Source of the DNA: Thermodesulfobacteriota bacterium
GTDB lineage: Bacteria; Desulfobacterota_D; UBA1144; Nemesobacterales; CSP1-2
Direction: 5' to 3'
DNA length: 64,000 nucleotides
Assembly (NCBI GenBank): GCA_049682815.1
Contig: JBAUII010000079.1
Span: forward strand, 29,864-93,863
Below are positions 7,410 through 59,850 of the stretch, in pieces. Under the pieces are notes generated by a model. That model was not told the origin of the DNA. It saw only the letters and a list, made by a program, of their open reading frames with translations, and ran no database searches. The position numbers and the translations under genes are program-made. Position 1 is the stretch's first letter, and each line of letters starts with the position of its first letter.

Positions 7410-7434
7410 TTTCTATATATAATGTTAGATAGGT

Positions 7435-8262: not shown

Positions 8263-8615
8263 ATAATTAAGTCCCTGGGATCAAATAAAGAATCTAAATT
8301 TATGTACGTTCATAAGGTGTTCATTGCCTTTAGACATAAGGTCGGAAGCATCGCTGTAATGTTACACGTTCAATAATCGGTATAATTTCCGCCAGAGAAC
8401 CAGAAGCTTTAATCCAGCATTCCTTGTTATAATTCCGACCTTGTCAGAGATCAATCCAAAGTGATTAGGAAACCTTAAGGCCTTAGAATAGATAAATTCT
8501 ATCTCATTGAAATCATTATAATTATCTTAGTGGATGCTTGAAAACAAATACAAAGTGATTAATCTTTCTTAATGTATTTGATGTTAAATTTCTTTAGTTT
8601 TTGAGGAGACAGTTT

Positions 8616-19444: not shown

Positions 19445-19573
19445 ATAGTCCGTAGGCCATATATCCTGTCATGTTTCTAAACTTACTGTGATGGAGTAAA
19501 GGCTACGACGCTGATTTCGGTCAAATTAGTAAGATGTAGTATCCGATTAAACAAATAGATTGCGCCAAGAGTA

Positions 19574-20038
19574 ATGAAAAAGATTGTTTTTAGTTTAATA
19601 GTCTTGGTAGTCCTGATTCTCTTTTTTTTCTTGCCGTCTGGGGACGATACAACAGAGATAGAATCTACGATTGATGAAATTATGATGGCAGGCAGGAAAA
19701 AGGACCTAAATGGCGTGATGGACCACTTTTCCATTCACTATAGAGATGAAAACGGAGCAACCTATCCTGTTGTAAAAAGCATCATTACGAGTTTCTTCTC
19801 TAATTATGAAGGGTTTGACTGTGATTATAGCGACTTAAAGGTTTCGATTAATGATTCGGATGAAGAACAAGCGGCAGTGGCAAGCCTTGATTTTTATGTT
19901 ATCGGAGTCAAGACTGGCAGGCGATTTCCTATAATAGGGAGTGAGTTATCACCTGAGAATATTATTGTTACCCTTGAGAAGACTACCTTAGGTGTCTGGG
20001 AGATAAAGGAGATTGAGGGCGTTAGGATCGATGAATAG
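19574..20038 (+). CDS. Hypothetical exported protein
   Basis: N-terminal signal/anchor (MKKIVFSLIVLVVLILFFF). No motif recognised. Confidence 0.4.
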   Translation: MKKIVFSLIVLVVLILFFFLPSGDDTTEIESTIDEIMMAGRKKDLNGVMDHFSIHYRDENGATYPVVKSIITSFFSNYEGFDCDYSDLKVSINDSDEEQAAVASLDFYVIGVKTGRRFPIIGSELSPENIIVTLEKTTLGVWEIKEIEGVRIDE

Positions 20039-20074
20039 GCTGCTTTGGTAAAATGATTCGAGGTTCTTGCTGTT

Positions 20075-20827
20075 CTAATCGATGTATTCTAATCTTCCGA
20101 GTATAAAATCATTTAGCAGTTCTATGTCGGTGTTTTGTGCTTCGTTTACGGTACCCTCAAAGATTATCCTTCCGTTGTAGAGGAATGCAATCCTGTCCGA
20201 AATTTCAAGTGCGCTCTTCACATCGTGAGTAATTATAACCCCGGTGATCCCGAATTTCTCCTGCATGTTTCTTATAAGGTGGTTTATTCTGCTGATATTT
20301 GGAGGATCCAGTCCGGTTGTTGGTTCGTCATAGAGTAAGATCTTGGGGTTCATGGCCATTGCCCTTGCGAGCCCCACCCTCTTTTTCATACCACCGCTTA
20401 GATCTGAAGGCAGTTTATCTTCAATTCCGGGAAGTCCCACGAGCTCTAAGTTCGTTGAGATAATTTCGTTGATTTCTTCTTCTGAATGGTTATTACCTTC
20501 CCTCAGGGGATATGCTATGTTTTCGGCGACCGTGAGGGAATCGAAAAGTGCAGCGCCTTGGAAGAGCATACCCATTTTTTTTCTGACGTGGACTAATTCA
20601 CTCTCATCCATTGGGACTATGTTTTCATTTTCTATAATAACTTCTCCTTCATCTGGCTTAATTAGACCAATGATCTCTTTGATCAAAACACTTTTCCCGG
20701 ATCCGCTTCCTCCCAGCACCGTAATGTTTTCTCCCCTCCTTATGGAAAGATTGACGCCAGTGTGTACCTGCTTTGAATCAAATGACTTATGAACGTTTTT
20801 TAGCTCTATTATGTAATTTTTATTCAT
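20075..20827 (-). CDS. ABC transporter ATP-binding protein, MlaF-like
   Basis: Walker A GGSGSGKS, signature LSGGMKKR, Walker B LLYDEPTTGLD, H-loop ITHD. 250 aa with an MlaF-style C-terminus. Confidence 0.8.
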   Translation of the reverse strand: MNKNYIIELKNVHKSFDSKQVHTGVNLSIRRGENITVLGGSGSGKSVLIKEIIGLIKPDEGEVIIENENIVPMDESELVHVRKKMGMLFQGAALFDSLTVAENIAYPLREGNNHSEEEINEIISTNLELVGLPGIEDKLPSDLSGGMKKRVGLARAMAMNPKILLYDEPTTGLDPPNISRINHLIRNMQEKFGITGVIITHDVKSALEISDRIAFLYNGRIIFEGTVNEAQNTDIELLNDFILGRLEYID

Positions 20828-22049: not shown

Positions 22050-23231
22050 TTGGGAACTAAAAACTTGGATTCCGACGACGCAATTTCATCAGGCAATGAT
22101 CATTTGGGTTTTACAAATGAATTAGAAGCCTATAGGTCTCCAGATTTCAAAGGGAAGTTAATTGATGTTGACGATTCTGAGTCTGAAATTGAATCCAATG
22201 ACTCCGATTGCTTGGATATCGAGCAGCGCAGTAGGGTTCCGGATGAACACTATAAACTTATGTATTATTATTTCAGGGATATGGCAAATGAACCCCTGTT
22301 AAAACCAAAAGAGGAGATAGAGGTTTCGGCTAAGATAAAAAGATGTGACCAGAAGTCGAGAGAGATAAAGCTGATTGTTAAGAGGCTTCAGAACAAAATC
22401 GAATTAGGGAACAATAAAAGGATTAAGCATCAGAAATTGAGGCGAAGTGAGCTTTCAAGGAAGATCATAATATTAAATGCCCTTGATAAGGCGTATTCTG
22501 AAAAGGCTAGACTTCTTAAATGTAGATTCATCAAATCGAACTTGAGATTAGTTGTGGCAATGGCTAAGAGATATATCAGCGTGGGTCTTCCGATTTCGGA
22601 CCTCATTCAGGAGGGTAATGTCGGGCTGATGAGGGCTGTGGACCGATTCGATCATACCAAAGGGTTTAAGTTTTCGACATATGCTTCGTGGTGGATCCGT
22701 CAAGCTATGTTCAGGTCTTTGCAAGAGCAAACCAGGACAATAAAGGTGCCGGCATATTTGTTGGAGCAAACTAATAAGATATTGAGAATAAGTTCAAATC
22801 TACGTAAGAAATATGGGAGGAGTCCCACTCCCGAAGAAATATCTAATGTCTCAAGGGTTTCTGTAGATGTGATAAAGCGTATTTTAAAATCAACTAATGA
22901 TGCCGTTAGCTTAGATTCACCAATTCTTCGAGGTGAGAAGACAACTCTCCTCGATTTTATTATCGATGAGGCATCTCCTGCCCCTGAATTTATTAGGACA
23001 AAGGTGATGCTTTTTGAAAGGATAAGGCAAGCCTTAACATTACTTACTCCTAGAGAGGAAGAGATACTCAGGCTGAGATTCGGAATAGACCAAAATACAA
23101 CTTACACGCTGGATGAAATTGGAAAGATATTTAATCTTACGCGTGAACGAATTAGGCAGATCGAAAAGGCGGCACTGGCAAAACTATCCGACTCAGACAT
23201 GGGGGATGTACTTAGAAGTTTTATGAATTAA
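22050..23231 (+). CDS. RNA polymerase sigma factor, sigma-70 family (RpoD/RpoS-type, regions 1.2-4)
   Basis: [35 protein letters not shown] (region 2). [24 protein letters not shown] (region 4.2). Confidence 0.8.
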
Positions 23232-23321
23232 TTTTGTGGATTCGATTTCTAAACCTGAGTCAAGTTTTCACACTAAACTGGATTCCTTCTAAAGGCATAG
23301 TATATTCAGAAAATTTTTTAC

Positions 23322-23393
23322 TGGCGGCGGGAGGAATCGAACCTCCGACAAAGGCCTTATGAGAGCCCTGCTCTACCTCTGAGCTACGCCGCC
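23322..23393 (-). tRNA. tRNA with CAT anticodon (elongator Met, or Ile2 if lysidine-modified)
   Basis: Hand-folded sequence GGCGGCG-TA-GCTC-AGAGGTA-GAGC-A-GGGCT-CTCATAA-GGCCT-TTGTC-GGAGG-TTCGATT-CCTCC-CGCCGCC-A. G1-C72 pair and no GGG/CCC anticodon stem, so not an initiator. Confidence 0.8.
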
Positions 23394-23563
23394 AAGGTGG
23401 ACTACGTTTCAGACCAACATGAGTATTGTCAATAGTTTTTCGATGCAGGGTTTAATTTTTATATGTCGATTTGGTCAGTATATCATGGCGGGTTCAACTT
23501 TCAAGACAAAATTCGGATTTTTGTAACGACTTAGGGGCATTAGAAGCGAAACAACTTTTCCTC

Positions 23564-24551: not shown

Positions 24552-24897
24552 TACCCATCCTCCTTTACAATAAGGTTAATTTATTGACCCATAAAGCGAT
24601 TGATCCTCGGACTGTGCTTGTGATTCTAAAACTTCGGCAAGCAATATAACATATTTTAAAAAAGATTTACAATATCAAATCTAAGAAATTAAAACTTTCC
24701 TCGCGCATAGGTATTTTGCAGGCCATGCATAATGCTTAAAAAAAGAAATTGATTCAAAAAAGGGCCATGCGATGATTCAGACTTCTTTGGAGTTTCTCAT
24801 CTATTACCTTGTGAGGTTTGTTATCGAAAAATTATTCGTATAGAATTGACTCAGGAGCAATTGTGAAAGTCATCTTAAAAATTCTTGAACAGACAAT

Positions 24898-25356
24898 GTG
24901 GGTTTGAAAGTTGATATGGTACTGAAACTCATTATTACTTTCTCATTAGCGATAAAATTTGTCGCCGCCTCAAATGCGGGGGCGCAAATAGTGGTAAGTG
25001 ATGCCTGGATAAGAGAATTACCCCCTGGCCCGTCGGTTACCGCGGGATACATGGTCATTGAAAATCTTGGAAACAATGACGACAAGCTCACAGGGATTAA
25101 TGCTAGCTTCGCGGGGCACGCAGGGATTCATACAACCCAGATCGACAATAATGGAATTGCGCGAACGAATATGATACAGGAACTTGTAATACCAGCAGGC
25201 AAAAAAGTAGTATTGGAACCGGGTGCAACGCATATAATGCTCACTGGCATAACTGAACCAATTAAAAAGGATGACACCATAAAGCTGGAGTTAATGTTTG
25301 AAAGAGCAGGTAGAAAAGAGATTTATGTGAAGGTTAAGGATTTAAGTGGTAATTAG
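24898..25356 (+). CDS. Periplasmic copper chaperone PCu(A)C (DUF461)
   Basis: Signal peptide, then AWIRELPPGPSVTAGYMVIEN...HAGIHT...LEPGATHIMLTGI...FERAG pattern. An alternative ATG lies at 24916. Confidence 0.7.
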   Translation: MGLKVDMVLKLIITFSLAIKFVAASNAGAQIVVSDAWIRELPPGPSVTAGYMVIENLGNNDDKLTGINASFAGHAGIHTTQIDNNGIARTNMIQELVIPAGKKVVLEPGATHIMLTGITEPIKKDDTIKLELMFERAGRKEIYVKVKDLSGN

Positions 25357-25415: not shown

Positions 25416-25465
25416 TGGTGGAGATGAGGGGATTCGAACCCCCGACCTCCGCCTTGCGAAGGCGG
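25416..25465 (-). repeat. att site: displaced 3' 50 nt of tRNA-Ala (direct repeat of 36339-36388)
   Basis: tggtggagatgaggggattcgaacccccgacctccgccttgcgaaggcgg is identical at both positions by direct comparison. The flanking bases differ on both sides. Confidence 0.85.
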
Positions 25466-25487
25466 AAATATTAATCCCTAACTTATT

Positions 25488-26576
25488 CTAACTATTAGCA
25501 ATATTAATAGTGGGTTTATACAGTGTGATTGTATTGTGATTGTTAAAGTTGGGTTCCAGCATTTTTACAGCGTTTTTCTTATGTTCTTGCGAGGGATGAG
25601 TATAGTGTTTCAGCATTCTAATATCTTTATGTCCAGTTATTTCCATTACCGTAATTATATCAACTCCCTTGGTTACCAGATCCGTTATAAAACTATGCCT
25701 TAGATCGTGAGGTCGGTAGTCTTCTAATTCAACTTTATCTAAAACCCTTCTCCAAGCTTTACCTACGGAATCTTTACTACAATAATTAAACACTCTTTCT
25801 TTATCTTTATTTAAGCCACATATAACCTCATGGGCAGTAGAGTTCATGGGTACAGTTCTCTGATTGTAATTCTTAGCATCTCTGATGATCATATGGCCAG
25901 TTTCCAAATCTATATCTGTCCACTTAAGCTTAATCAACTCGCTCACCCTCATTCCTGTATTTCTAGCGACTAAAATAAAGGCCTTAAGCATTATTGGAGC
26001 ATTGTCAGTTATCTTATCAAGCGCATCGTGCGGAATGTATTTTGATTTTCTTTCATATTCCTCTGCGTTCAAAGGCTTTACTTTCTTAACATCAGAAATC
26101 GGGTTATTAGATGACTCCCCCCATCCAATAGCTCGATTAAACATGGAACGAAGTACGTTAAGTTCTCGGTTGATAGTTGATGGTTTAACTCCTTCTTGTT
26201 TTCTTAGAGATTTATATTTTTCAATTTGCCAGGAAGTAATTTGGCTTATGTTCGTATTACCTACAAATTCAAAAAACTTTCTTGTTACATGAGCTTCTCT
26301 TTTATAGCCTTTCTGATTCTCTGTAATCCAATTTAGGTACTTATCTATCAAGTTTTTAAGAGGAATATTCTTCTCGGTTCTCTGCAGTTTATATCTTCCC
26401 TGCACTACCTCACCCATTCTTGCTTTTAGGGCTTGTTCGGCTTGCCCTCTTGTAAATATTCCAACATGTCCTATTCGTTCTTTTATCTGCCTTTTATTGT
26501 TGTAGTATGCGATCCACCAACTATTACCATGTTTGAAGATGCTTCCCATACCTCTTGCTCTTTGTTTACGTGCCAT
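25488..26576 (-). CDS. int: Tyrosine recombinase / phage-type integrase
   Basis: SAM-like N-domain. Catalytic residues in ARNTGMRVSEL (R), HDLRHSF (HxxR) and LKHYTH (Y). Confidence 0.9.
   Translation of the reverse strand: MARKQRARGMGSIFKHGNSWWIAYYNNKRQIKERIGHVGIFTRGQAEQALKARMGEVVQGRYKLQRTEKNIPLKNLIDKYLNWITENQKGYKREAHVTRKFFEFVGNTNISQITSWQIEKYKSLRKQEGVKPSTINRELNVLRSMFNRAIGWGESSNNPISDVKKVKPLNAEEYERKSKYIPHDALDKITDNAPIMLKAFILVARNTGMRVSELIKLKWTDIDLETGHMIIRDAKNYNQRTVPMNSTAHEVICGLNKDKERVFNYCSKDSVGKAWRRVLDKVELEDYRPHDLRHSFITDLVTKGVDIITVMEITGHKDIRMLKHYTHPSQEHKKNAVKMLEPNFNNHNTITLYKPTINIANS
25524..25543 (+). repeat. TGTGATTGTATTGTGATTGT: candidate arm-type recombinase site (left)
   Basis: 18/20 identical, and in direct orientation, to 36193-36212 near the other end of the element. 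The internal unit TGTGATT is repeated twice. It lies inside the int 3' coding end. Confidence 0.35.
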
Positions 26577-26577
26577 T

Positions 26578-26754
26578 TTATTTTACCCCCTTACATTCTC
26601 TTTTTTTTAATAGATCCGCCATTGCTTCACGGACCAACTCCGCCATTGCTCGGCCTTCCTTCTTTGCTACCGCTTTAAGCCTGTCTAATATTTCCTCGTC
26701 TATGTGTAGGTGAAATTGGCCTAATCTTTTTTTTCTCTCTTGACGTTTCTTCAT
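26578..26754 (-). CDS. Ribbon-helix-helix (CopG/Arc-like) protein, 58 aa, immediately upstream of int
   Basis: Below the ORF-track size cut-off; my own translation is MKKRQERKKRLGQFHLHIDEEILDRLKAVAKKEGRAMAELVREAMADLLKKRECKGVK. This is a beta-strand plus two helices RHH pattern. The stop lies 1 nt before the int ATG. Confidence 0.6.
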   Translation of the reverse strand: MKKRQERKKRLGQFHLHIDEEILDRLKAVAKKEGRAMAELVREAMADLLKKRECKGVK

Positions 26755-26814
26755 AATAGATTATTATATACGAAGTAGGTATAATGTCAAATAATAAATC
26801 TATGGAGGTAAATC

Positions 26815-27165
26815 ATGGACAAAAAGACCCAAATAATAACTTTACTAAACGATATAAAACCACCGCTTTTTTTATCACCAATAGACCTTTTCCAACGACT
26901 GGTCATAGACTTATATGTGGAGTTCCGCTACATGTCTGACGATCTCGTAACTGCCGAGGATATGTTTAGAATAGCCTTACCAATTCTAGAGAGTAATATT
27001 ACCGAAGAGGATATTAAGGCATATCAGGAGCTCAAAAAAGACCCCGTAGTATGCCACCTTATGGCTAAATATCCGGTGATTAAAAAAGCTATGAGAAATG
27101 GACGCACATCACAACTCATTTACAACTTCGAGAGAAAAGTTGTTAGAAAGGATGGAGTGAATTGA
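26815..27165 (+). CDS. Hypothetical protein (island)
   Basis: Clean 116-aa ORF with RBS GGAGG at 26802. No motif recognised. Confidence 0.45.
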   Translation: MDKKTQIITLLNDIKPPLFLSPIDLFQRLVIDLYVEFRYMSDDLVTAEDMFRIALPILESNITEEDIKAYQELKKDPVVCHLMAKYPVIKKAMRNGRTSQLIYNFERKVVRKDGVN

Positions 27166-27805
27166 GTATTCGTCCTTGGATAATCAACTTAAAGTAATCA
27201 GATATATTTTGAGCAATTAGAAAAGTACGATCCTGAGAAAGAGTGTCTTTTAATTGTCCAGGCTACCGAGAATACTGATTACCACTTTGCGAAACTATGG
27301 GTTTTCACAAAAAGGGATGGATCAGTTTATAGCATAGAACGTGCCTCCTAAATGTAATGGGATTGCCTATAACAACCTAGATGAAGTAACCTTTCCAGTA
27401 GAAACGTAGATTAATAAAGCTTTACTTACCTTTATTTTAATTTACTATCCTTATTCGATTGCATTCCTATATGGTCGCGTTAGAAAATAAAGAGACAGTA
27501 TGTCCCCCATCATTCTATGCTAGGCTTTCACTGAGATCTTAGTGACGGCATAGGCTAGTCAAAGGGGGTTCATGGGGTTAAGGGGGTTCATATATGTACT
27601 TAACCCTGTTTAAATTCTCAGGGAAAAAATCAGGAAAACAGCAAACAGGGTATATAAGTAACCCTCTTATTCAAAGAAAATGCAGCCACGGCTTGTACAG
27701 AGGCCTTAAAAGGGTATTTATAGACAAGAATTTCTTGCTGGTCTTTGCAAATAAATCTTTCACGGGTCATTCCGCACGATATTCTAATAATGTATACTTT
27801 AATAC

Positions 27806-28096
27806 ATGAAAAGGTTAGCGTTCATTGTTTCATTTTTATTGGTTATGTCAATAGCGGGGGTAGCCAATGCCCAGTACACGATAAATGATGTTTACTGGGA
27901 CAAAGCAAGAGGAGAGTGGATGGTTGATGTTGAACCCTGGCCTCAGCAACCTGTGATAATTGTCCCTAACTACACATACAACGTATTCGTTCCTGCGCCA
28001 CAGTATATACTTCCCGATACTTTTGAAGTGATTATTCAGGAGCCGGTATTTGACGAAAAGCTGCTACGGGGTCTAATGTTGGACTTGCCGTACTGA
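27806..28096 (+). CDS. Hypothetical small secreted protein (island)
   Basis: Signal peptide MKRLAFIVSFLLVMSIAGVANA|QY. 96 aa. Confidence 0.5.
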   Translation: MKRLAFIVSFLLVMSIAGVANAQYTINDVYWDKARGEWMVDVEPWPQQPVIIVPNYTYNVFVPAPQYILPDTFEVIIQEPVFDEKLLRGLMLDLPY

Positions 28097-28145
28097 ATGG
28101 GTGCAAGGTGTTAGTTATTTCTTTGACGTATCGGTAGGTCGCTAG

Positions 28146-28161
28146 GATTTGAGTTGCTTGG
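28146..28161 (+). repeat. 16-nt direct repeat copy 1 (GATTTGAGTTGCTTGG)
   Basis: One of three copies of GATTT(T/G)AGTTGC(T/C)T(G/A)G in the 28100-28580 non-coding region. Confidence 0.5.
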
Positions 28162-28337
28162 CGTAACCAATTGATGTTTTAGGGATAAAGATTTAGTATA
28201 ACTACGTCCCGAGCGTCTCAGGATGCGACAGTGGTTGCTAGTGAATTTTTAGGTATAGATTAAGAGGTTGATAAATGTGTTCCTAGAGGGATTCAATAAG
28301 TTATTTTTTCTCAACCCTTACCTTAGTACCTTTTCTT

Positions 28338-28353
28338 GATTTTAGTTGCTTGG
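28338..28353 (+). repeat. 16-nt direct repeat copy 2 (GATTTTAGTTGCTTGG)
   Basis: See copy 1. Confidence 0.5.
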
Positions 28354-28489
28354 AATCTTTACCAGAGGCCATAGAATCGAAAAATAAGTCAAATTTGATT
28401 TATCCCCTTTGTTCCGATTTCACTACAAAATGTAATGCATATAAAGGAATACCTATATAGGATAAACCTTTACTTCTTTTATCTAGGGT

Positions 28490-28505
28490 GATTTTAGTTG
28501 CCTAG
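28490..28505 (+). repeat. 16-nt direct repeat copy 3 (GATTTTAGTTGCCTAG)
   Basis: See copy 1. Confidence 0.5.
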
Positions 28506-28581
28506 ATAAGGGGTGTAAGGTTGATTATATGCGTTTTCTTTTTCGAGTTCCATAGAAAAAATTGCTTTCCCTTCTCGGATA

Positions 28582-29097
28582 ATGTATTGCCATATACTTA
28601 TGATTGAGAATAACGGATGGCAAGCTAAGCCTAAGAAGAAAAAGGACTCCTACTATAAATCTATGGCTAGAGTCAGAAAGGTAAGGTATAGGCTTTCCAA
28701 AAGTGAAAGGATGGTTTTTGATGTTGAAATTGAACCTGAGTATATCGATTATAGCTTAGAAGATAAGGCGAAGATCAGCGGGTTAAGTTTGAAACGCTAT
28801 AGCGAAGCTTTTAGCAAAATGAACCGGAAACCTACAGTTAAGTTGGCGATTACAATTGGTCTGATCGAGAAAGACTTCACCGGAAATTGGTTTAGAAGGA
28901 TTAATAAATTAATTGCATGGGCTGAAGCTGAGAAGGATTACAAGTATATTTTGATTTTGGAACGAGAAAAGGCTTTGATGCCAAAGCGATTAATAGCCAC
29001 TGGAAGGGTAGCAGGCGAATCTGAGGATGATGGGAAGTCTGAACCTGAATTACCCAAGGATATGCTTCCCGACCTGGAGCGGTGGGGACAACTATAG
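28582..29097 (+). CDS. Hypothetical protein (island cassette gene 1)
   Basis: 171-aa ORF with a basic N-terminus and acidic C-terminus. A possible HTH-like stretch (ISGLSLKRYSEAFSKM) is only a guess. An internal Met (MARVRK) is an alternative start. Confidence 0.45.
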   Translation: MYCHILMIENNGWQAKPKKKKDSYYKSMARVRKVRYRLSKSERMVFDVEIEPEYIDYSLEDKAKISGLSLKRYSEAFSKMNRKPTVKLAITIGLIEKDFTGNWFRRINKLIAWAEAEKDYKYILILEREKALMPKRLIATGRVAGESEDDGKSEPELPKDMLPDLERWGQL

Positions 29098-29121
29098 TAA
29101 GTAAATTTTTAAGGAGATAGT

Positions 29122-29757
29122 ATGCCGATAAGAACATTTGATTATCGTACAGATGAAGAAAGAACGGAGCGAAATAAGATGACTTTGGAAGAGCTAGTCA
29201 GGGCAAGCACAGGCGGTCTAGGTCTAGATTCGCTCGAGGATTTTAAAAAAGCTATTGCAAGAACAGGTAAAGTTCCCATCGGTGTTTTTAATCCTGAGCT
29301 TAGACGAATAGGCATGGAGCATCTGAGCCAATATAGGGGTGGTACACCTACAAGAGCGGAATTTCCTGTTTCCAAGATAGCACAAGGTGGAGGCGAAGGA
29401 CTTAAGACATTATTGGAAGCTGCTGCTATAGGTTCAGGCAACTTAGAGAACATATCAGCTATGTTAATACCCAAATTGGGTATAGGATCTATTAATGCCT
29501 TGCGTTCCACTACGGGGTTTCTACCCATTGAACTTAGCCCTAATAGATTCACGCCAGGCGGTTTCACACAAAAGATAGATTTGGGTGCAGGCCAGAGCGG
29601 GTTCGTATTTGGACGGCAGGCAGATTTGGACTTGGCTAGAAACATGTTACAACGAAAGCAGGCACAGTTGGAATTACAGACAGGGCAGAGGAAGAGGCGA
29701 TTTGGCAAACCTCAAAAAACTTCATTAATAGCACAGTATTTAGCACAGCAGGGATAG
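29122..29757 (+). CDS. Hypothetical Gly-rich protein (island cassette gene 2)
   Basis: 211-aa ORF with RBS AAGGAG at 29111. No motif recognised. The antisense ORF 29142..29708 is judged spurious. Confidence 0.45.
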   Translation: MPIRTFDYRTDEERTERNKMTLEELVRASTGGLGLDSLEDFKKAIARTGKVPIGVFNPELRRIGMEHLSQYRGGTPTRAEFPVSKIAQGGGEGLKTLLEAAAIGSGNLENISAMLIPKLGIGSINALRSTTGFLPIELSPNRFTPGGFTQKIDLGAGQSGFVFGRQADLDLARNMLQRKQAQLELQTGQRKRRFGKPQKTSLIAQYLAQQG

Positions 29758-29758
29758 T

Positions 29759-30136
29759 ATGGCCGATAATTTGACTGATTATACAACTGAAGAGAAAATA
29801 GATGTTATAGCTGATTTTGCCAATATTGACTCTGAAAGGATTAATGACATGATTCTAAATTATGCCTCTATGTGCGTCAATGAAATAATGCCTCAAGATT
29901 GTACTGTCCGCTTCGACAAAGACTTTGTTAAACTCACTATACTTGCTTATGAGACTGCACTCGATTGTTGGTTTAAGCTGTTAGACGACTACGATGGAGA
30001 TAAAGAGAGTGGAGAAGGCTTAGAACCGCATTCAATAAATGATCAACTTTACAGCTTTAATCAACAGATTCTCCAAGCGTTTTTTGAAAGGGTAAAAGAG
30101 GAAATGAGTGAAAGCACCCTTGAGAAGCTAAACTAA
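29759..30136 (+). CDS. Hypothetical acidic protein (island cassette gene 3)
   Basis: 125-aa ORF. Its ATG lies 1 nt after the previous stop, suggesting translational coupling. Confidence 0.45.
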   Translation: MADNLTDYTTEEKIDVIADFANIDSERINDMILNYASMCVNEIMPQDCTVRFDKDFVKLTILAYETALDCWFKLLDDYDGDKESGEGLEPHSINDQLYSFNQQILQAFFERVKEEMSESTLEKLN

Positions 30137-30179
30137 TTAAGATTTATCTACGGTGTAAAAGATTGCTTTACATTGATAA

Positions 30180-30281
30180 TTATTCTCTCCAATCCCGCCC
30201 TGTAAGATGTCTCCTTATATCATAGACACAGAGAGTAATCACAATTAGACATACTGTTTGAACAAGTAGAATTTTCTCCAT
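30180..30281 (-). CDS. Candidate 33-aa hydrophobic peptide (type I toxin-like / small membrane protein)
   Basis: My own translation is MEKILLVQTVCLIVITLCVYDIRRHLTGRDWRE. It is preceded by AGGAGGAT with a 5-nt spacer and by a TATAAT about 25 nt upstream on the minus strand. It lies antisense between two + strand genes. Confidence 0.35.
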   Translation of the reverse strand: MEKILLVQTVCLIVITLCVYDIRRHLTGRDWRE

Positions 30282-30414
30282 ACTATATCCTCCTATTTTA
30301 AGCTAATTATAATTCCTTATTTAATTTATTGATATTATTGGGATTTGGATTTAATTATTGAACTGGCATGTCAGAGACAATATAATTAGGGTAACAGCTC
30401 AAGTGGGGGGAAAA

Positions 30415-31272
30415 ATGAGGCTAGGACATATAGTCCCGCTTATCTTAATAATATTTATCCCTATTTCGTTACAAGCAAAGGATGTTTATAAATGCGCTGA
30501 CAAGAACGGCAACTTTTATTACAGCACTACAATCTGCCCAGGTGGGGAGAAAAAATCTAAGCCAAATGTAATTAACACACCGTCCCAGTTAGATCAGGGA
30601 AAAACTGTAAATAAAGAAGGGGGTGATATGCCACGGTCAAAGACTATACTTGAAGATAGCCCAGAACCTTCCGATTCAAAAAATAAAATTGCTAGTGAGA
30701 TTGACGCCATAAATGCAAAAATAAAAGAACGCCAAAAGATGATGAGATTTTACGATACTAAGCAGTGTTACCAGACCTCACCACCTAATAGTGGAAGAGA
30801 AATTATCTGTGATCATACAAACAGCAAGTACCAAGCATATGCTTTGGAAATAGCAGAGTTACTCCGCTATCGTGATCAGCTCTTATTTATTCTTAATTCT
30901 GATCCGCTACAGCTTCAAAATAGAAAATTTCCCTGTCAAGTTACACAAGTTATTGATGGCGATACCTTCGACTGTATTTTACCCAATGGAGTAGAAGACA
31001 GAGTTCGATTAATTGGAGTTGATGCACCGGAATCTGGGACGACTCATGGAGATTTGGCAACCGCATATTTACAATCCTATTTAATCCCGAACACTAGTGT
31101 AACTTTGGAATTGGATGCTGAGCCTAGAGACAAATACGGACGCATACTTGCATATGTTTTTTTGGCTGATGGTACTATGATTAATGCTTTACTAGTTCAA
31201 GAAGGATATGCTACTGTAGACATATACCCGCCGAATGACAAATATGAATCCTATTTAATTAATGCTCAATGA
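30415..31272 (+). CDS. Secreted thermonuclease (SNase/micrococcal nuclease fold) with DUF4124-like N-domain
   Basis: Signal peptide from Met 30415 (MRLGHIVPLILIIFIPISLQA). DVYKCADKNGNFYYS (DUF4124-like). C-terminal VIDGDTFDC...VRLIGVDAPE...GRILAYVFL...NALLVQEGYA. Confidence 0.75.
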   Translation: MRLGHIVPLILIIFIPISLQAKDVYKCADKNGNFYYSTTICPGGEKKSKPNVINTPSQLDQGKTVNKEGGDMPRSKTILEDSPEPSDSKNKIASEIDAINAKIKERQKMMRFYDTKQCYQTSPPNSGREIICDHTNSKYQAYALEIAELLRYRDQLLFILNSDPLQLQNRKFPCQVTQVIDGDTFDCILPNGVEDRVRLIGVDAPESGTTHGDLATAYLQSYLIPNTSVTLELDAEPRDKYGRILAYVFLADGTMINALLVQEGYATVDIYPPNDKYESYLINAQ

Positions 31273-31280
31273 GTAGCCTT

Positions 31281-31514
31281 TCACCTATCAATCCATTCAC
31301 GTAATTCACCGTTTGCTTTCATTCTGATTATGAGTTCTTCCAGTCCCTCTGATATAGAAATATACCCTCCGCAACTCTCAACAATACCTTCCAGGGTGAT
31401 TTTGTACTTATCACAGTTAAGCCGCTCCCTATCCTCAGAGAAGGTTAAGTAAAAGCATTTAATACATAGCCCTTGCAATACAAGCTCTTTAATCTGATCG
31501 CTGTTGTTGTTCAT
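31281..31514 (-). CDS. Hypothetical protein (island)
   Basis: 77-aa ORF downstream of the primase gene on the same strand. Confidence 0.4.
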   Translation of the reverse strand: MNNNSDQIKELVLQGLCIKCFYLTFSEDRERLNCDKYKITLEGIVESCGGYISISEGLEELIIRMKANGELREWIDR

Positions 31515-31709
31515 ATGTCTCTTTTACTCGTTTGAAATTCTCACATTCAGGGGTAATGATATTGATTATGAGTTTTCCATTACTACTCCTTGTTTCGGTC
31601 TTATAGGTATCATCACTTATCTTTTGTATAGGTGTTGTCTTGTCCCCATTCGCCTCAGAAAATATTTTCTTTCCATTTTCGTTGACTAATTGACTAATGG
31701 GGTCACTAT

Positions 31710-34241
31710 CTAATGATTTAGGGGAGTTATATTCAAATAGTGAGTCATGACTAATCTCTGACTTATCTTGACTAATGTTTCGGCCTTAACTTCCTGTAAT
31801 GATGCACTTTTTTTTAGAAAAGTGGTATTAGTCAATGAGTCAGACTTTTCAAGTAATAATTTTTTTAACGCTTCGGGAGTTGGGAGTTTAAGTATCTCTT
31901 GGGGTATAGAAATAAACTTATATTTGCTCTTTATCCCCTTTTCGCCATTATGCTCCAAATACCCTGAATCAGCTAAAGCATAAACCTCGGTTCTAAAGGT
32001 TGTGTTGACTTTGCAATTGCATAGTTTTGCTAATTCGCTCATTGAAATCTCATCCTCTGGATGTTGCTCTTTTATCTTTTGCAGGATTTTTTCTTGTTGG
32101 GGTGTAATCTCTTTTAGGGTCTGAGACAATACCACAGTTGCTAATTCATAAGCGGTCTTATAGTCCTCAATGGTTGCCTCAAGATAGGTTTTGCCATCTA
32201 CCTCTGATTTTTCTCTCTGTTCTTGATGTAAGAGACAATGAGCTTTAATGAGATTCTCAAATCTCGTAAAATCACGTCTGCACCTAACTTTATCTACCGG
32301 AAAAGTATCCGCTAGTATTCCAAGATAGGGTACAAAAACGTCATAGGATCTTAGTAGTAACTGTAGGGCTTGATACGGCCTATTCTCCTTATCAATCATT
32401 TCGTTATTAATGGGTATTGCTTTTGATTGAAGTATTTCTCGACTCTGTTCATTGGATTCATCTATATATAAATCAAATAGCCTAGTTTGATTTTCAGGGT
32501 TTATTTGGGACTTGGTCGTAGTTTCAACATAGGTCAGTCCCCTTGCGGGGATAAATATCTCTTTTGCCTCAAAACTTCCAGTTTTCGGGTTTGGTTCTGT
32601 CACTAATTTGCTAAGTTCACCCTCTGAGATTGATGAACGAATAGGGTAATCAGCTTTCTCAGAACCATGAGATTCATATATCACAAGTATTGTATGGGAT
32701 AGGTCTAATCCTGGAAGCCTATAAAGTGCCTGAGACGATACATCCGTATATGCCCTATACACACTTTTGGGGAATACCTTTAATACGGCTTTTACTAATG
32801 CACTCTTACCGCTAGAGGATTTACCCTTGACTACATTTGAGATTGCTTCATCAAATAATCTTGAGGTAAAAGACAAAACTAGCACTCTTTTGTTTACTTT
32901 TTCGCCTATATAACCATTTCTACCTATTTGCTCTACAATCTTGTTTAATAGGTCAGGGTCTCCTAACAATTCCCTTGCTTTCCCTATTTCATCGTCTGTA
33001 TATTCGCTTAAAGGGTCGTATGGTTTCTGATCTTCTTTTGTTGTTTCAACTTCATTACATATGGCTTTTAAGTCGCTCTGTAATCCCCTCGTGCCTATCT
33101 CATGTTTCTTTGAAAGTTTGTTAATCCAGGTTTCCTTGTGGCTTGCAAGTTCCAGCTTGCTAATCTCTTTTAGTGCCTCTGGTATATCTTCATTCTCTAT
33201 AACTGCATACAGGTAATATGTGGCCTCATTTATACCTTTCTCAATTATTTCTCTAAACTTGTCAATGCCGTATTTAACTAAAAGTTCATCAAAATCCTCT
33301 TTGTAGCCTGTGTTTAGAATATATCCCCTAAATTCTTTTGCTAAGGGATAAGAAGCCTTATTGCCCGCTTCGTCTGAATCAAACGCCACGTACTTTTTAG
33401 CCTTAGATTTTAAAAGTTCATCCCTTGCGTGTTCGCCTAGATTAGTTCCTAATAATGCACAGGTATTAAACCCCGCTTTATCAAGAGCTACAGCGTCAAA
33501 TACCCCCTCCACAATGCAGCAATCATTCTTGTTTAGATTCTCTGATAGATATATTTGTTTCCGTATCAAGTCAGAGTTTCTAAGGTGTAAATACTTAGGG
33601 TTATTCTCTGTTATCGTATTATCAGGGGATGCTCTGCCGGTTAGATAGACAGCCTTTCCATGCTTCAGTATAGGGATAATTATTCTATTTCTGAAATGGT
33701 CGTAATAGCTTCCATTATTGCCTTTATTGATTAGTCCTACATCTTCAGCTATCTCTATGTCGGTTTGATCTTTTAGATTAGTGGCTACAGGGTTATTATC
33801 TCCTACATACCCTATTGAATGACGGTCAATATCGCTTTCATCTAAGCCTTTAGCCCTTAAAAATTCGATTACTTCAGGATGTTTCTTTATCTTCTTATTG
33901 GCATGGGCTGTAAATCTTTCTATTAGCTCATATGCCCGTAACTGTCTATCGAATCTCTCTTTCTCCTTAGGGGAAACTTCAGGCAAAGGTACATAATATT
34001 CCTTTGCTAATGATAGAGCAGCATCTAGGGGTGATAATCCCTTGTGACTGGCTTCCAAATCTATGATATCGGCACGTTTACGACAAACGAAACAATATCC
34101 ATGCGTACCATAGTTATGGAGTGAAGGGTTATGGTCGTCATGGAAAGGGCAGGTATCTTTCTTGCTACCATTAAATATTCCCCTATCGTTGCAATACCTT
34201 TCAAATGGTATAGCTTCTTTGACATTTTCAAATATTGACAT
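31710..34241 (-). CDS. DNA primase (CHC2 zinc finger + Toprim) fused to a P-loop NTPase domain (replication initiator of the element)
   Basis: CPFHDDHNPSLH...GYCFVCRKRADIIDL (CHC2). CCIVEGVFDAVAL...AFDSDEAGNKA (Toprim). Walker A GKSSSGKSALV in the C-terminal half. 843 aa. Confidence 0.8.
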   Translation of the reverse strand: MSIFENVKEAIPFERYCNDRGIFNGSKKDTCPFHDDHNPSLHNYGTHGYCFVCRKRADIIDLEASHKGLSPLDAALSLAKEYYVPLPEVSPKEKERFDRQLRAYELIERFTAHANKKIKKHPEVIEFLRAKGLDESDIDRHSIGYVGDNNPVATNLKDQTDIEIAEDVGLINKGNNGSYYDHFRNRIIIPILKHGKAVYLTGRASPDNTITENNPKYLHLRNSDLIRKQIYLSENLNKNDCCIVEGVFDAVALDKAGFNTCALLGTNLGEHARDELLKSKAKKYVAFDSDEAGNKASYPLAKEFRGYILNTGYKEDFDELLVKYGIDKFREIIEKGINEATYYLYAVIENEDIPEALKEISKLELASHKETWINKLSKKHEIGTRGLQSDLKAICNEVETTKEDQKPYDPLSEYTDDEIGKARELLGDPDLLNKIVEQIGRNGYIGEKVNKRVLVLSFTSRLFDEAISNVVKGKSSSGKSALVKAVLKVFPKSVYRAYTDVSSQALYRLPGLDLSHTILVIYESHGSEKADYPIRSSISEGELSKLVTEPNPKTGSFEAKEIFIPARGLTYVETTTKSQINPENQTRLFDLYIDESNEQSREILQSKAIPINNEMIDKENRPYQALQLLLRSYDVFVPYLGILADTFPVDKVRCRRDFTRFENLIKAHCLLHQEQREKSEVDGKTYLEATIEDYKTAYELATVVLSQTLKEITPQQEKILQKIKEQHPEDEISMSELAKLCNCKVNTTFRTEVYALADSGYLEHNGEKGIKSKYKFISIPQEILKLPTPEALKKLLLEKSDSLTNTTFLKKSASLQEVKAETLVKISQRLVMTHYLNITPLNH

Positions 34242-34243
34242 GT

Positions 34244-34447
34244 TTATTCCTTTGGTTCCCAGTTCCTAAAATCCCAATGTTTATTGTACGCTTCTAGCAT
34301 TATTTGCATTCTAAGGGTTTGAACATCAACGCCCTTTTTAGATGCAATTCTATATAGCAGTCTTGACAGTCTAGGGTTGCACATTGGGCACTCACTCTTA
34401 GATTTATGGTGGAAATTACCCTTAGGGTAAGTTAAAATATTGGTCAT
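34244..34447 (-). CDS. Hypothetical protein (island), stop 2 nt before the primase start
   Basis: 67-aa ORF containing CPMC. Tightly packed with the primase gene. Confidence 0.4.
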   Translation of the reverse strand: MTNILTYPKGNFHHKSKSECPMCNPRLSRLLYRIASKKGVDVQTLRMQIMLEAYNKHWDFRNWEPKE

Positions 34448-34475
34448 CGCAACATCTCCTATTTTTAAAGTTTCG

Positions 34476-34507
34476 CCCTGACTAGACTCACCTAGTCAGG
34501 GTTTTTT
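34476..34507 (+). terminator. Perfect 10-bp stem-loop with T-tract on the + strand
   Basis: CCCTGACTAG-actcac-CTAGTCAGGG-TTTTTTA. It lies between two minus-strand genes, but the U-tract is on the + strand only. Confidence 0.4.
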
Positions 34508-34518
34508 ATTGCCCTTTT

Positions 34519-34713
34519 TCAATACGGATCAATCGTTTTTTCGTCGATCATTTTCATGAGTTTATCGTATGGCACGTACACGTTGTGCCCGATTTTCAAT
34601 CTTGGGAGCTGGCCAAGAAATATTCGTTTTCGGACTGCTCCTTGGGGGATACCAAGCAGACTCGCAACTTCCGGAATCCTTAACAGCTTCGGGATTTTTC
34701 TTGTTTTATACAT
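34519..34713 (-). CDS. Excisionase-family / AlpA-like helix-turn-helix DNA-binding protein
   Basis: LLRIPEVASLLGIPQGAVRKRIFLGQLPRLKIGHNVYV matches the HTH_17-type pattern. 64 aa. Confidence 0.65.
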   Translation of the reverse strand: MYKTRKIPKLLRIPEVASLLGIPQGAVRKRIFLGQLPRLKIGHNVYVPYDKLMKMIDEKTIDPY

Positions 34714-34883
34714 TTTACTACTCCTCGATTCTAATGTGTTCTACTTGCATGTATAACGGGAAGTGCACATGACGAAATAAAAAAGCGGTAAATAAAGACT
34801 GTTAGAGATTTATCTTCTTTTAAGAAATTGGGGATTTGCTAGGGTGGAAATTTTATAGGAAGGGCCGTCAGTGGCTCTTAGTA

Positions 34884-36170
34884 TTAAATAGTTTCGTCAG
34901 TTTCTTCATAGTCTTCTTTATCAACTAATTTAGGAAACTGATTCTTGCTTGAATTTCTAAGTCGGTTAACCAATTCATGACGTGTTGCCATTTTCAGGTA
35001 CTTTTTTAGATTATTTATGCTTTTAATTTTTTCTAAGGGGATAACCGGTATTACGTTTTGGACAAGGTGGATGGTTAACTCGCTTATCCAATCATTTTCC
35101 TCTTGGAAGCTGATCCATCTCTTACCTATCGCCCCTCTTACAACTTGTTGAGCGGTTTTTTCTTTCATTAGCCATTTAAGATTTTCGCTATCACTATCTC
35201 CGATTTCTACTGCAAAGGTCTTATCGATATTTGGGCATCGCTTTTTTACCTCCAGACTCATACCTAAGCCTTTGGGGTATTTTTTCATTAGCTTCCATTT
35301 CTCCCAAATTGGTAATTTTAATATATGGACTTTTTCACTCGGGAGTTTGAGGTTGCTGAAAATTGTATTTTCGTCTATTTCTCCACTTTCGAGGAAGGTA
35401 TATCGAAAAATGAAGTTGCCGGTAAGTTTAGCCAATTTAACTCTTGCATCAGTTAATGATTCCATCATTGAAAATTCAGCAAACGCATTTTTTTCTATAG
35501 CCCACGTTAGCCTATTTTTTAGTTTTAGCTTCACAGCCCGTAGTTTTCCCTGTTTTATCCATTTATAAATTGTTTGACGTCTGTTTGATTTGATTTTTCT
35601 AATAGGTTTTGTATCTGCTAATAGCTTCCAGGGACCTAAGTTGTCGTTTTCTTCAGTTTTAACGAAGTTTAGAAGCCCTAAGACCTGTGGAATTGTCAAC
35701 AACTTCCCTTTACTGAAAAGGGACTCTGCATTTCTTTTTACGTATTCGACTCGGATTTTGTAATAAGTCTTCGGACATAGAGCCTCAATAAGGTCATACT
35801 CAATAAATCGACATTCTGGCAATTTTTTTATCCCACGCTCATATAGATTGAAAGCCGAATTGATTTCCGAATACTTCCTTAGCAATTCATTGCGAATCTT
35901 CCTAACTCTCTTATAATAACTCTTAGGGTTCTTCTCTTCATATTTTTTGCCACCAGCTAATTCAGAAATCTTCTCGGAGTCCCACCCCTTCAATATTTCA
36001 ATTATATTTTTAGCTTCTTGCCTAAAATCGACTTGGACTTTTTTAATAAACGTATCTTCTGGACTCGTTTTAAGATAATGACCAGCAATTATTCTAAACG
36101 GTCGGTAGGCAAATCTTTTAAGAAACTGGATTCGACGTTTAGTAGTCTCTAGTTTACTTTCTTGATCCAA
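34884..36170 (-). CDS. Hypothetical 428-aa protein (island) with an internal HTH-like segment
   Basis: RRQTIYKWIKQGKLRAVKL resembles an excisionase/MerR-type HTH. Nothing else recognised. Confidence 0.4.
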   Translation of the reverse strand: MDQESKLETTKRRIQFLKRFAYRPFRIIAGHYLKTSPEDTFIKKVQVDFRQEAKNIIEILKGWDSEKISELAGGKKYEEKNPKSYYKRVRKIRNELLRKYSEINSAFNLYERGIKKLPECRFIEYDLIEALCPKTYYKIRVEYVKRNAESLFSKGKLLTIPQVLGLLNFVKTEENDNLGPWKLLADTKPIRKIKSNRRQTIYKWIKQGKLRAVKLKLKNRLTWAIEKNAFAEFSMMESLTDARVKLAKLTGNFIFRYTFLESGEIDENTIFSNLKLPSEKVHILKLPIWEKWKLMKKYPKGLGMSLEVKKRCPNIDKTFAVEIGDSDSENLKWLMKEKTAQQVVRGAIGKRWISFQEENDWISELTIHLVQNVIPVIPLEKIKSINNLKKYLKMATRHELVNRLRNSSKNQFPKLVDKEDYEETDETI

Positions 36171-36192
36171 AACGATTAATCCTTACGCTAAT

Positions 36193-36212
36193 TGTGATTA
36201 TAATGTGATTGT
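36193..36212 (+). repeat. TGTGATTATAATGTGATTGT: candidate arm-type recombinase site (right)
   Basis: 18/20 identical to 25524-25543 in the same orientation. It lies about 125 bp inside the tRNA-proximal att repeat. Confidence 0.35.
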
Positions 36213-36338
36213 AAAACAGAAATTTACTGAATACAAACGCACGGAGCTGAACAGTTCCCGAACAAGAAGGCCTTATTGATAATTGGTACAACTACCTGAA
36301 ATTAAATACAAAATCCTTTAGTGCTTGTGGCTTATAAG

Positions 36339-36415
36339 TGGTGGAGATGAGGGGATTCGAACCCCCGACCTCCGCCTTGCGAAGGCGGCGCTCTCCCAAA
36401 CTGAGCTACATCCCC
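36339..36415 (-). tRNA. tRNA-Ala (anticodon CGC), CCA encoded
   Basis: GGGGATG-TA-GCTC-AGTTTGGGA-GAGC-G-CCGCC-TTCGCAA-GGCGG-AGGTC-GGGGG-TTCGAAT-CCCCT-CATCTCC-A-CCA. The G3:U70 alanine identity pair is present. Confidence 0.9.
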
Positions 36416-36537
36416 ACTTTTTGTGAGACAAACATTCGGTTTCTCTGTACATTAAACATGGCCAACTGGAAATTTTATCTAAAATTACCAAAAAATACTA
36501 ACCAAAACTAAATTAATTAATTAAATTAAAAAACCAC

Positions 36538-59111: not shown

Positions 59112-59122
59112 GAAATAATGCA

Positions 59123-59158
59123 CCTCCGGGAGGTCACGACCTCCCGGAGGTCGTCTAG
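59123..59158. repeat. REP-like palindrome (CCTCCGGGAGG-TCACGA-CCTCCCGGAGG + TCGTCTA tail)
   Basis: 11-bp perfect stem. Lies between the RAYT stop and the cytochrome start. Confidence 0.8.
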
Positions 59159-59161
59159 ACT

Positions 59162-59737: not shown

Positions 59738-59822
59738 TTTTTTACTACAAATTCAAATTTCAAATGCTTCTTCCTTAATTATACAGCCATCAATCATATT
59801 ATTGTTCACCTCCTTTTGTTCA

Positions 59823-59850
59823 CCTCCGGGAGGTCATGACCTCCCGGAGG
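59823..59850. repeat. REP-like palindrome (CCTCCGGGAGG-TCATGA-CCTCCCGGAGG)
   Basis: Near-identical to 59123-59150. Lies upstream of the RAYT gene. Confidence 0.8.

Follow-up and report, generated by a model that had tools for sequence, protein, structure and literature searches.

The window analysed here is a 64-kb stretch of contig JBAUII010000079.1, from a Thermodesulfobacteriota bacterium, and it contains a 10.9-kb element inserted in a tRNA-Ala(CGC) gene. We regard it as nearly certain that this is an integrative mobile element. Our preferred reading, to which we give a probability of about 0.6, is that it is a site-specific integrative element, intact or almost so, with its own replicon: a 'hitcher' island, similar to phage-inducible chromosomal islands (PICIs) and tycheposons. 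It is a member of a coherent, previously unnamed family of elements of 10.7-11.6 kb, whose lineage appears undescribed as far as the searched libraries show. Islands in tRNA genes that combine an integrase, an Xis/AlpA-type regulator and a primase-replicase form a well-known class (Type C PICIs, tycheposons, and the virion-encapsidated integrative mobile elements or VEIMEs). Elements of such logic are already known by thousands, and no concept is changed here; what is new is the unnamed lineage and the unusual replicase. The element is nevertheless a clean, fully delimited tRNA-targeting hitcher from a poorly studied uncultured lineage, for which occupied, empty and decayed sites and dated siblings are at hand.

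Insertion site and integration genes

The element is bounded by a 50-nt direct repeat. Positions 25416-25465 are 100% identical to 36339-36388, at a spacing of 10,923 bp, and the repeat runs from position 28 of the tRNA-Ala gene, in the 5' arm of the anticodon stem, to the CCA end. A preliminary description of the window had pointed out both this repeat and the abrupt end of the similarity around it; ARAGORN, Rfam and a repeat search reproduce the former, and the flanks of the two copies do diverge at once on either side. A chance origin of the identity is negligible. The extent of the repeat implies, as had been proposed, a crossover in the anticodon arm, with the element donating a new 3' half to the tRNA, a combination that is reportedly classic for tRNA-targeting integrases. 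The island is slightly AT-richer than its surroundings, with a GC content of 0.375 against 0.40-0.43 in the flanks. The features of the insertion site are:

36339-36415, minus strand: intact tRNA-Ala(CGC) (ARAGORN and Rfam, 69.7 bits)
36339-36388: attL, the 3' 50 nt of the intact tRNA-Ala (repeat)
25416-25465: attR, the distal att site, a copy of the 3' 50 nt of tRNA-Ala (100% repeat of 36339-36388)
Expected attP junction: ...GTGCTTGTGGCTTATAAG + 50-nt core + AAATATTAATCCCTAAC...
Expected attB junction: ...TTTTGACCACTACAT + 50-nt core + CGCTCTCCCAAACTGAGC...

Metagenome contigs were scanned with one degenerate pattern that covers attL, attR, attB and attP together, and two contigs were returned (L006 and L007; contigs are identified here by such labels). 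In both, DNA that is 85% identical to the left flank of the window, comprising the 3' end of the PCuAC gene and the intergenic region, continues uninterrupted into a complete tRNA-Ala, itself 100% identical to the tRNA of the window over 81 nt. Beyond the tRNA, L007 has an AAA-ATPase gene 89% identical to the right-hand neighbour in the window. These two contigs are the empty tRNA-Ala site in a related organism, and since the same site is empty in related bacteria, the insertion is real. An empty site had been set beforehand as a check on the claim that this is a discrete integrated mobile element, and that claim holds. A third state of occupancy is found in L170, a 1.09-Mb contig that matches 12 kb of the window at about 90% identity. 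At 11934-16716 of L170, tRNA-Ala is followed 58 nt away by a 101-aa C-terminal fragment of an integrase, and then by a guanylate cyclase, a lipase and fragments of IS3, and a distal repeat is missing; the locus looks like a decayed older island. Taken with the empty sites, this third state indicates that tRNA-Ala is a recurrent landing site and that the insertion in the window is one discrete event.

It is worth adding that the surroundings of the site also differ between these contigs. L006 and L007 lack the first 60% of the PCuAC copper-chaperone gene, counted from its 5' end, together with its upstream region (window 24736-25171), and L170 has no PCuAC gene at all; the interval from the M23 peptidase gene to tRNA-Ala varies of its own accord. 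L007 also has, 5' of the tRNA, an extra gene of 442 aa (659-2172), which is beta-helix-like by sequence, where the window has only 108 bp (36420-36527).

The features connected with integration and excision are listed below.

25488-26576, minus strand: tyrosine integrase, 362 aa (PF00589 3e-33, Int_N 7e-14, phrog_1 7e-69)
26578-26754, minus strand: ribbon-helix-helix (RHH; Arc/CopG-like) protein, 58 aa, first in the RHH-integrase operon (RHH_3 3e-07; phrog_3180, Arc-like repressor, 6e-10)
26763-26790, minus strand: putative sigma-70 promoter of the RHH-integrase operon, TTGACA-16-TATAAT, 12/12 to consensus (promoter scan)
34519-34713, minus strand: HTH_17 (helix-turn-helix, HTH) or excisionase-family DNA-binding protein, 64 aa (PF12728 4e-05, TIGR01764 1e-04, phrog_66 6e-05)
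25524-25544, plus strand: arm-type-like repeat pair TGTGATTGTA and TGTGATTGTT, 11 bp apart, just inside attR
36193-36213, plus strand: arm-type-like repeat pair TGTGATTATA and TGTGATTGTA, 11 bp apart, just inside attL

The integrase lies at the end of the island distal to the intact tRNA, in agreement with the preliminary description. It is 55% identical to the integrase of the sibling element in L172 and 34-35% identical to those in L005 and L173. A gap of 1 nt separates the RHH gene from the integrase start, and a small open reading frame (ORF) directly before the integrase is also found in the siblings. The promoter, to which a function is assigned from its consensus sequence, belongs to a divergent promoter region and faces o116, one of the cargo ORFs. 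The HTH_17 protein scores somewhat below the cutoffs of its families (24.1 bits for HTH_17, with a Pfam cutoff of 27, and 22.7 bits for TIGR01764, with a cutoff of 28.8), and the AlpA profile gave no match; the gene occurs at an equivalent position in L173 and L174. Between it and the small ORF that precedes the replicase there is an 11-bp GC-rich hairpin (34475-34502). A role for this hairpin as terminator of the replication operon was rejected, the T-run being only on the non-coding strand.

Tandem motifs of the TGTGATTRTA type are present inside both ends of the element, all on the same strand. The motif TGTGATTRTA occurs four times in 64 kb, compared to an expectation of 0.35, and three of these four copies are at the two element ends. 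From this distribution, a function as arm-type integrase sites is plausible.

The replicase and the sibling family

The replication region of the element contains the following features.

31710-34241, minus strand: replicase, 843 aa, with CHC2 zinc finger, DnaG core (DNAG_N) and Toprim, fused to a predicted MCM (minichromosome maintenance)-like AAA+ domain and winged helix, PF27228 (Pfam, TIGR01391)
31489-31779, minus strand: C-terminal tail of the replicase, surviving as a remnant of about 97 codons in another frame (61% identity to the L001 tail, 40% to the L005 tail)
31683-31834: iteron cluster of ATTAGTCA, candidate origin of replication (5 of the 6 copies in the window within 152 bp)
34244-34447, minus strand: family-core small ORF before the replicase, 67 aa, o67 (homologue in L174, 3e-5)
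31281-31514, minus strand: family-core ORF downstream of the replicase, 77 aa, o77 (86% identical to its counterpart in L001 and 53% to that in L005, at the equivalent position)

The N-terminal half of the replicase is a DnaG-type primase, and the family alignment profile matches the DnaG structure 2au3 in the PDB at 1e-59. The C-terminal half carries PF27228 (precomputed domains), which is named after a Methanothermobacter plasmid protein, and the alignment shows that its Walker A motif is invariant and that arginines are conserved. AlphaFold gives a model for this half with a mean confidence (pLDDT) of 67, in which the P-loop core is poorly resolved. A Foldseek search with the model returned MCM2-7 subunits as the best matches in the PDB (E 3e-4, prob 1.0), followed by RuvB and MarR-type winged helices. 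On the strength of the MCM2-7 matches the protein is read as primase::MCM-like AAA+::winged helix, and the model thus suggests a DnaG primase fused to an MCM-like AAA+ and a winged helix. Full-length homologues with 42-71% identity are found in the siblings (71% in L001, 61% in L005, and also in L172-L174). A profile scan of genome contigs with the replicase alignment was swamped by the zinc-finger motif of cellular DnaG, and yielded only a few distant full-length matches. Through this type of replicase (DnaG plus MCM-like AAA+, PF27228), bacterial islands are connected with plasmids of Proteobacteria and with one of an archaeon.

The 64-kb window was scanned for the octamer ATTAGTCA, whose cluster sits at the 3' end of the replicase gene. 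L001 has seven copies of the same octamer in the equivalent relative position, and L005 has a different repeated motif there. Iterons that are common to L001 and swapped in L005 are the pattern expected of an iteron origin that co-evolves with its initiator, and from its sequence the cluster is likely to be the origin of replication. We consider that the element is probably an autonomous replicon, with the caveat of a frameshift in the replicase that is discussed below.

The family is defined by a small RHH-type ORF followed by the tyrosine integrase, together with an operon of HTH_17 (Xis/AlpA-like), small ORF and DnaG::MCM-like-AAA+::winged-helix replicase. The general order is optional accessory genes, HTH_17, small ORF, replicase, the 77-aa ORF (in the closest relatives), variable cargo, small ORF and integrase. 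The window element belongs to it by identities of 42-71% in the replicase, 34-55% in the integrase, 53-86% in o77 (L001 and L005) and 27% in o67 (L174); ORFs positionally equivalent to o67 are present in L172, L173 and L005. The siblings are themselves delimited elements at different sites. In L005, a contig from a metagenome-assembled genome labelled Desulfobacterota, the element is about 11.5 kb long, occupies a non-tRNA site and has a 16-nt repeat at its two ends. The L173 element is 10.7 kb long, and its 19-nt bounding repeat is part of a tRNA-Asp-like gene; its integrase adjoins the tRNA, in the orientation opposite to that of the window. The L001 element adjoins tRNA-Pro. Sibling cargo differs from one element to another (adhesins, PemK, a GHKL ATPase with an MmeI-type methylase, CARDB), and none of it is common with the window.

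Several siblings carry genes of terminase type. In L172, the region directly after the replicase (7258-9085) encodes a 163-aa Zn-ribbon/HTH protein and then a large terminase (TerL) split into an ATPase ORF of 248 aa (Terminase_6N, phrog_7579, 1e-59) and a nuclease ORF of 199 aa (Terminase_6C). A split TerL without any capsid gene is unusual for a satellite-like island. L174 has a small terminase gene (TerS; phrog_24579, 3e-7). Homologous proteins of about 160 aa are encoded in L005 and in an island at tRNA-Met of L170, and their joint profile matches PDB entry 2ao9 at 1e-4; the title given by the depositors is 'Phage protein', and we take it to be a small-terminase-like nonamer from a prophage. 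No capsid, portal or tail gene was found in the siblings, including 30 further sibling cargo proteins. With four siblings bearing TerS-like genes, one of them also the split TerL, and no capsid gene, the family is PICI-like.

The island of L170 at tRNA-Met (18118-20120) is a sibling element in its own right, with an integrase 39% identical to that of the window, a 69-aa small ORF and a divergent TerS-like protein of 155 aa. At the corresponding place the window has a sigma-70 gene directly beside tRNA-Met (22050-23394), which makes this a second polymorphic tRNA-linked island when compared with L170.

Cargo, packaging and alternative explanations

The remaining features of the island are cargo genes and two conserved non-coding blocks.

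26815-27165, plus strand: o116, 116 aa, function unassigned (no Pfam, PHROG or NCBIfam match; singleton at 90% clustering)
27357-27810: conserved non-coding block with AAGGGGGTTCAT twice (82-88% nucleotide identity to L175 5336-5785, 1-nt indels)
27806-28096, plus strand: o96, small protein of 96 aa with signal peptide (N-terminus conserved with a 93-aa ORF of L175)
28149-28581: second conserved non-coding block, upstream of o171 (74-88% nucleotide identity to L175 6093-6555; 18-nt repeat three times)
28582-29097, plus strand: o171, predicted all-helical protein of 171 aa, HTH-like in its N-terminal part and containing a long helix (AlphaFold2 pLDDT 74)
29122-29757, plus strand: o211, Gly-rich protein of 211 aa (one homologue among 5.8 billion proteins)
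29759-30136, plus strand: o125, acidic protein of 125 aa (no family match)
30358-31272, plus strand: secreted nuclease of staphylococcal-nuclease type (SNase), cargo (SNase 1e-16, NucI-like 1e-24, DUF4124)
34884-36170, minus strand: o428, 428 aa, with a weak internal HTH_17-like segment (HTH_17 2.5e-4, nothing else)

The eight ORFs of 116, 96, 171, 211, 125, 77, 67 and 428 aa have no family match in Pfam, PHROGs or NCBIfam. The gene calls of the preliminary description (an RHH-integrase operon, an excisionase-type HTH, a primase fused to a P-loop domain, a secreted nuclease and about eight ORFs without a recognisable domain) were reproduced with these three libraries. The cargo ORFs of the window are singletons or nearly so; o171 has eight homologues among 1.84 billion representative proteins, and additional genomic contexts of its homologues were short contigs that gave no information. 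The SNase has an N-terminal signal-like segment, and its likely start is at 30415; the source annotation gives 285 aa. A defence system in the island was considered and rejected, since PADLOC matched nothing beyond the SNase domain and, from its DRT models, the part that resembles DnaG.

The block at 27357-27810 is better conserved against L175 than the adjoining coding sequence is, and the coding region of o96 diverges from L175 right after the signal peptide. L175 adjoins tRNA-Lys, and its integrase is 27% identical to that of the window at the amino acid level. The single-nucleotide indels rule out that the conserved block is coding. No known RNA was matched in Rfam, and the fold z-scores of -1.9 and -2.6 are weak. 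Among viruses, the repeat motif of the block has one match, on an unrelated GC-rich viral contig, which was dismissed as chance, and a 20-nt conserved stretch of the block has no viral match. The conserved non-coding DNA may have a regulatory role, resemble a pac site or encode an RNA.

On our preferred reading, a site-specific integrative element with its own replicon, the sequence shows that the integrase joined a circular attP to the segment of tRNA-Ala(CGC) from the anticodon arm to CCA, the element's copy rebuilding the 3' half of the tRNA and a second 50-nt copy being left at the far end. For excision, the integrase would use the paired TGTGATTRTA repeats inside both ends as its arm-type sites; the RHH protein may autoregulate the strong integrase promoter, and the HTH_17 protein may direct excision, turn on the replication operon, or both. 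The replicase would bind the ATTAGTCA iterons within its own 3' coding region, unwind the DNA and prime it. Having no transfer genes, the element would depend on a helper. Packaging into helper capsids is the most likely route for the family, given the TerS-like genes of four siblings, the split TerL of one and the capsid genes of none. The copy in the window is a cargo-type variant, with its secreted nuclease and ORFs without assignment, and with no recognisable packaging gene.

A number of points weigh against this reading. As the preliminary description had said, no profile for capsid, portal, terminase, tail, relaxase or type IV secretion system (T4SS) matches in the island in the three libraries. 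With PADLOC added, there is likewise no match to TerS, TerL, or a capsid-remodelling or interference gene, with the proviso that the ORFs without a family could hide one. The best candidate was o171, for which a structure and profile check had been suggested: Foldseek matches of its AlphaFold2 model are HTH- and TerS-like and non-significant (E >= 0.07), hhalign against the TerS-like profile of the siblings gives a probability of 0.3%, and a PDB profile search was empty, which speaks against any relation to TerS. In IMG/VR (2.9 million viral contigs) there are no relatives of the integrase, o211, o428 or the C-terminal half of the replicase, and the attP junction that had been proposed as a check was absent from the same collection; INPHARED phages match the DnaG half of the replicase only. 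No excised form of the element has been observed, and the empty sites were seen in a relative that differs at the species level, and not within the element's own population. Lastly, the replicase is frameshifted near 31780-31800 in comparison with L001 and L005, with loss of a conserved tail of about 97 aa, which makes its replication competence uncertain. The tail remnant has no stops in the alternative frame. The independent Logan assembly L171 has the identical sequence in the frameshift region, and a Logan contig of SRR28061647 is 100% identical to window 29896-32756. In the more distant members L172-L174 the tail is naturally missing, and it may therefore not be required.

The preliminary description had called the element a possible undescribed satellite and had suggested a search for a helper prophage. 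None is present in the 64-kb window, where the flanks hold housekeeping genes. Of the satellite proposal, the undescribed lineage stands within the libraries searched, and the TerS-like genes and TerL of siblings without capsid genes are in its favour; the lack of a recognisable packaging or interference gene in this copy is not. Satellite status or phage-mediated transfer of this copy is a possibility to which we give rather less than even odds. A bolder version would have a working, undescribed phage-satellite family of uncultivated Desulfobacterota-like bacteria with a DnaG::MCM-like replicase acting from an origin inside its own gene, and with a TerS and split TerL but no capsid in some members, in which the terminase-less copy is packaged through the two strongly conserved non-coding blocks and the neighbouring o171, which would be a rare DNA-binding protein, as a pac or adaptor module exchangeable among elements that have different integrases; this we consider unlikely. 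Since terminase-bearing and terminase-less members share one backbone, the family is in any case a useful test case for the interconversion of satellites and cargo islands.

Instead of a satellite, the element could be a mobilisable island or an integrative plasmid. Once excised, it would be maintained or copied in the form of a small plasmid by its DnaG::MCM-like replicase, and it would spread by conjugative mobilisation (from a cryptic origin of transfer, oriT), by vesicles or by natural transformation. In PLSDB, full-length relatives of the replicase, with 27-28% identity, are encoded by plasmids: Lonsdalea populi has one on a free plasmid of 11.3 kb (NZ_CP072857.1) with the order HTH, primase, XerC-like recombinase and toxin/antitoxin, and another is on a megaplasmid of P. 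aeruginosa (NZ_CP090650.1), where the module is present twice and the second primase copy ends at an IS66 element. These modules may constitute a related integrative-plasmid family in Proteobacteria. The origin of the name PF27228 in an archaeal plasmid protein, the lack of full-length replicase matches in the phage and viral collections, the failure to find a packaging gene in this copy and the variable cargo of the siblings (adhesins, PemK, nuclease) all point the same way. Cargo-type tycheposons have been seen in vesicles and not in virions (bioRxiv 10.1101/2020.12.28.424599), and the host of the window encodes ComEC. However, no relaxase, oriT or partition gene was found with Pfam, PHROGs or NCBIfam, no FtsK-like translocase is among the Pfam and NCBIfam matches (profiles of a kind that an oriT might escape), and the terminase-type genes of four close siblings on a common backbone would be senseless for a plasmid or vesicle lifestyle. 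We rate this explanation as somewhat improbable. That the copy integrated in the same way and has recently been immobilised, surviving as an island that is dead or domesticated and does no more than provide cargo, for example the secreted nuclease, is less probable again. The frameshift, on which two assemblies agree and which leaves a tail 61% identical out of frame, would fit such decay, as would the reduction of islands at tRNA-Ala to integrase fragments in L170, but the two 50-nt att copies have not diverged from each other, intact ORFs remain for the integrase, the RHH and HTH proteins and the rest of the replicase, and the lost tail is one that L172-L174 do without. Finally, an integrase with att sites at a tRNA, and PHROG matches for the integrase, the repressor-like RHH protein, the primase and the nuclease, are what a small prophage stripped of its structural genes might leave behind. 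Structural, lysis and terminase genes were not found in the island, its repeats are perfect, and its compact size and backbone recur in independent repeat-bounded siblings, and so a prophage remnant is hardly credible.

Elsewhere in the window, the region 59000-64000 has a GC content of 0.49-0.57 compared to about 0.41 for the rest, and lies beside an IS200-like Y1 transposase (59162-59737). It encodes a patatin-like lipase and a homologue of pentameric ligand-gated ion channels (62619-63725), and may be another acquired region.

Comparison with known systems

The element differs from conjugative and capsid-forming systems. Integrative mobilisable and conjugative elements, including those of actinomycetes (IMEs, ICEs and AICEs), are recognised by a relaxase, oriT, T4SS or FtsK-like translocase, none of which gave a Pfam or NCBIfam match. 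Capsid-forming PICIs (cfPICIs) carry their own capsid, portal, head-tail adaptors and TerL; there is no structural match here, and TerL is seen in L172 only. With P4-like satellites the element shares a size of about 10-11 kb, a tRNA integrase, a putative AlpA-type regulator and one large replicase of the primase-helicase-origin-binding type. It differs from them in host range, in having no psu, delta, sid or epsilon and cargo ORFs without a PHROG or Pfam match, and in a replicase of DnaG type with MCM-like AAA+, for which no P4 alpha-type profile is among the matches.

For the replicase itself, a parallel is found in BcMCM from a Bacillus cereus prophage (PMC2715239, PMC3273815), where a primase and an MCM-type AAA+ helicase are likewise combined in one polypeptide of an integrated element. 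The primase segment of BcMCM is similar to archaeo-eukaryotic primases (AEP-like), whereas that of the window is CHC2/Toprim DnaG-type, and the MCM assignment in the window comes from a medium-confidence model (pLDDT 67) with a Foldseek E of about 3e-4. The Lonsdalea populi plasmid resembles the element in its full-length replicase homologue (27-28%), upstream HTH, tyrosine recombinase, toxin and nuclease cargo and similar size. In modules of that type the recombinase follows directly after the primase, and they occur as a free plasmid or inside megaplasmids with no documented tRNA att site.

The likeness to PICIs (PMC10085698) lies in the size of about 10 kb, the site-specific integrase, a small putative MerR/Xis-type regulator ahead of the primase-replicase, an iteron origin beside or inside the replicase gene, variable accessory genes, and a TerS-like gene in siblings of the window. 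This copy has three of the five core components if the below-cutoff HTH_17 protein is counted as the regulator: of the components in the PICI model it has the integrase and the primase-replicase, and lacks a recognised TerS or packaging gene and a capsid-morphogenesis or interference gene. It also differs in its DnaG::MCM-like replicase, which would be a functional analogue of the usual Pri-Rep, and in the RHH gene that precedes the integrase. Elements with only integrase, regulator and replicase are 'Type C' PICIs in SatelliteFinder, a class treated by its authors as ambiguous (PMC10085698), and this copy would be placed there. VEIMEs (PMC9618062) are similar in being 5-17 kb long, with integrase and primase/helicase, with or without AlpA, excisionase and TerS, and with no major capsid gene; they are defined as concatemers in virions, whereas the element of the window is known from its DNA sequence, and no relative was found in IMG/VR.

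The tycheposons, which are elements of Prochlorococcus and other marine bacteria (bioRxiv 10.1101/2020.12.28.424599), differ from the element in their replicase, and in that the host lineage of the window is uncultured, with about 40% GC, relatives in JGI (Ga-prefixed) metagenome contigs and one relative labelled Desulfobacterota. They also have several features in common with it. A tyrosine recombinase targets the 3' part of a tRNA and leaves a partial tRNA copy behind, as at tRNA-Ala in the window, and the hallmark integrase and primase/helicase with variable cargo are also found here, with a putative excisionase. Tycheposons occur as terS-bearing PICI-like and as cargo flavours on one backbone (bioRxiv 10.1101/2020.12.28.424599). 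Their decayed remnants and several occupancy states beside a tRNA have counterparts in L170 and in L006 and L007, where the tRNA-Ala of the window is seen with a remnant and empty, respectively.

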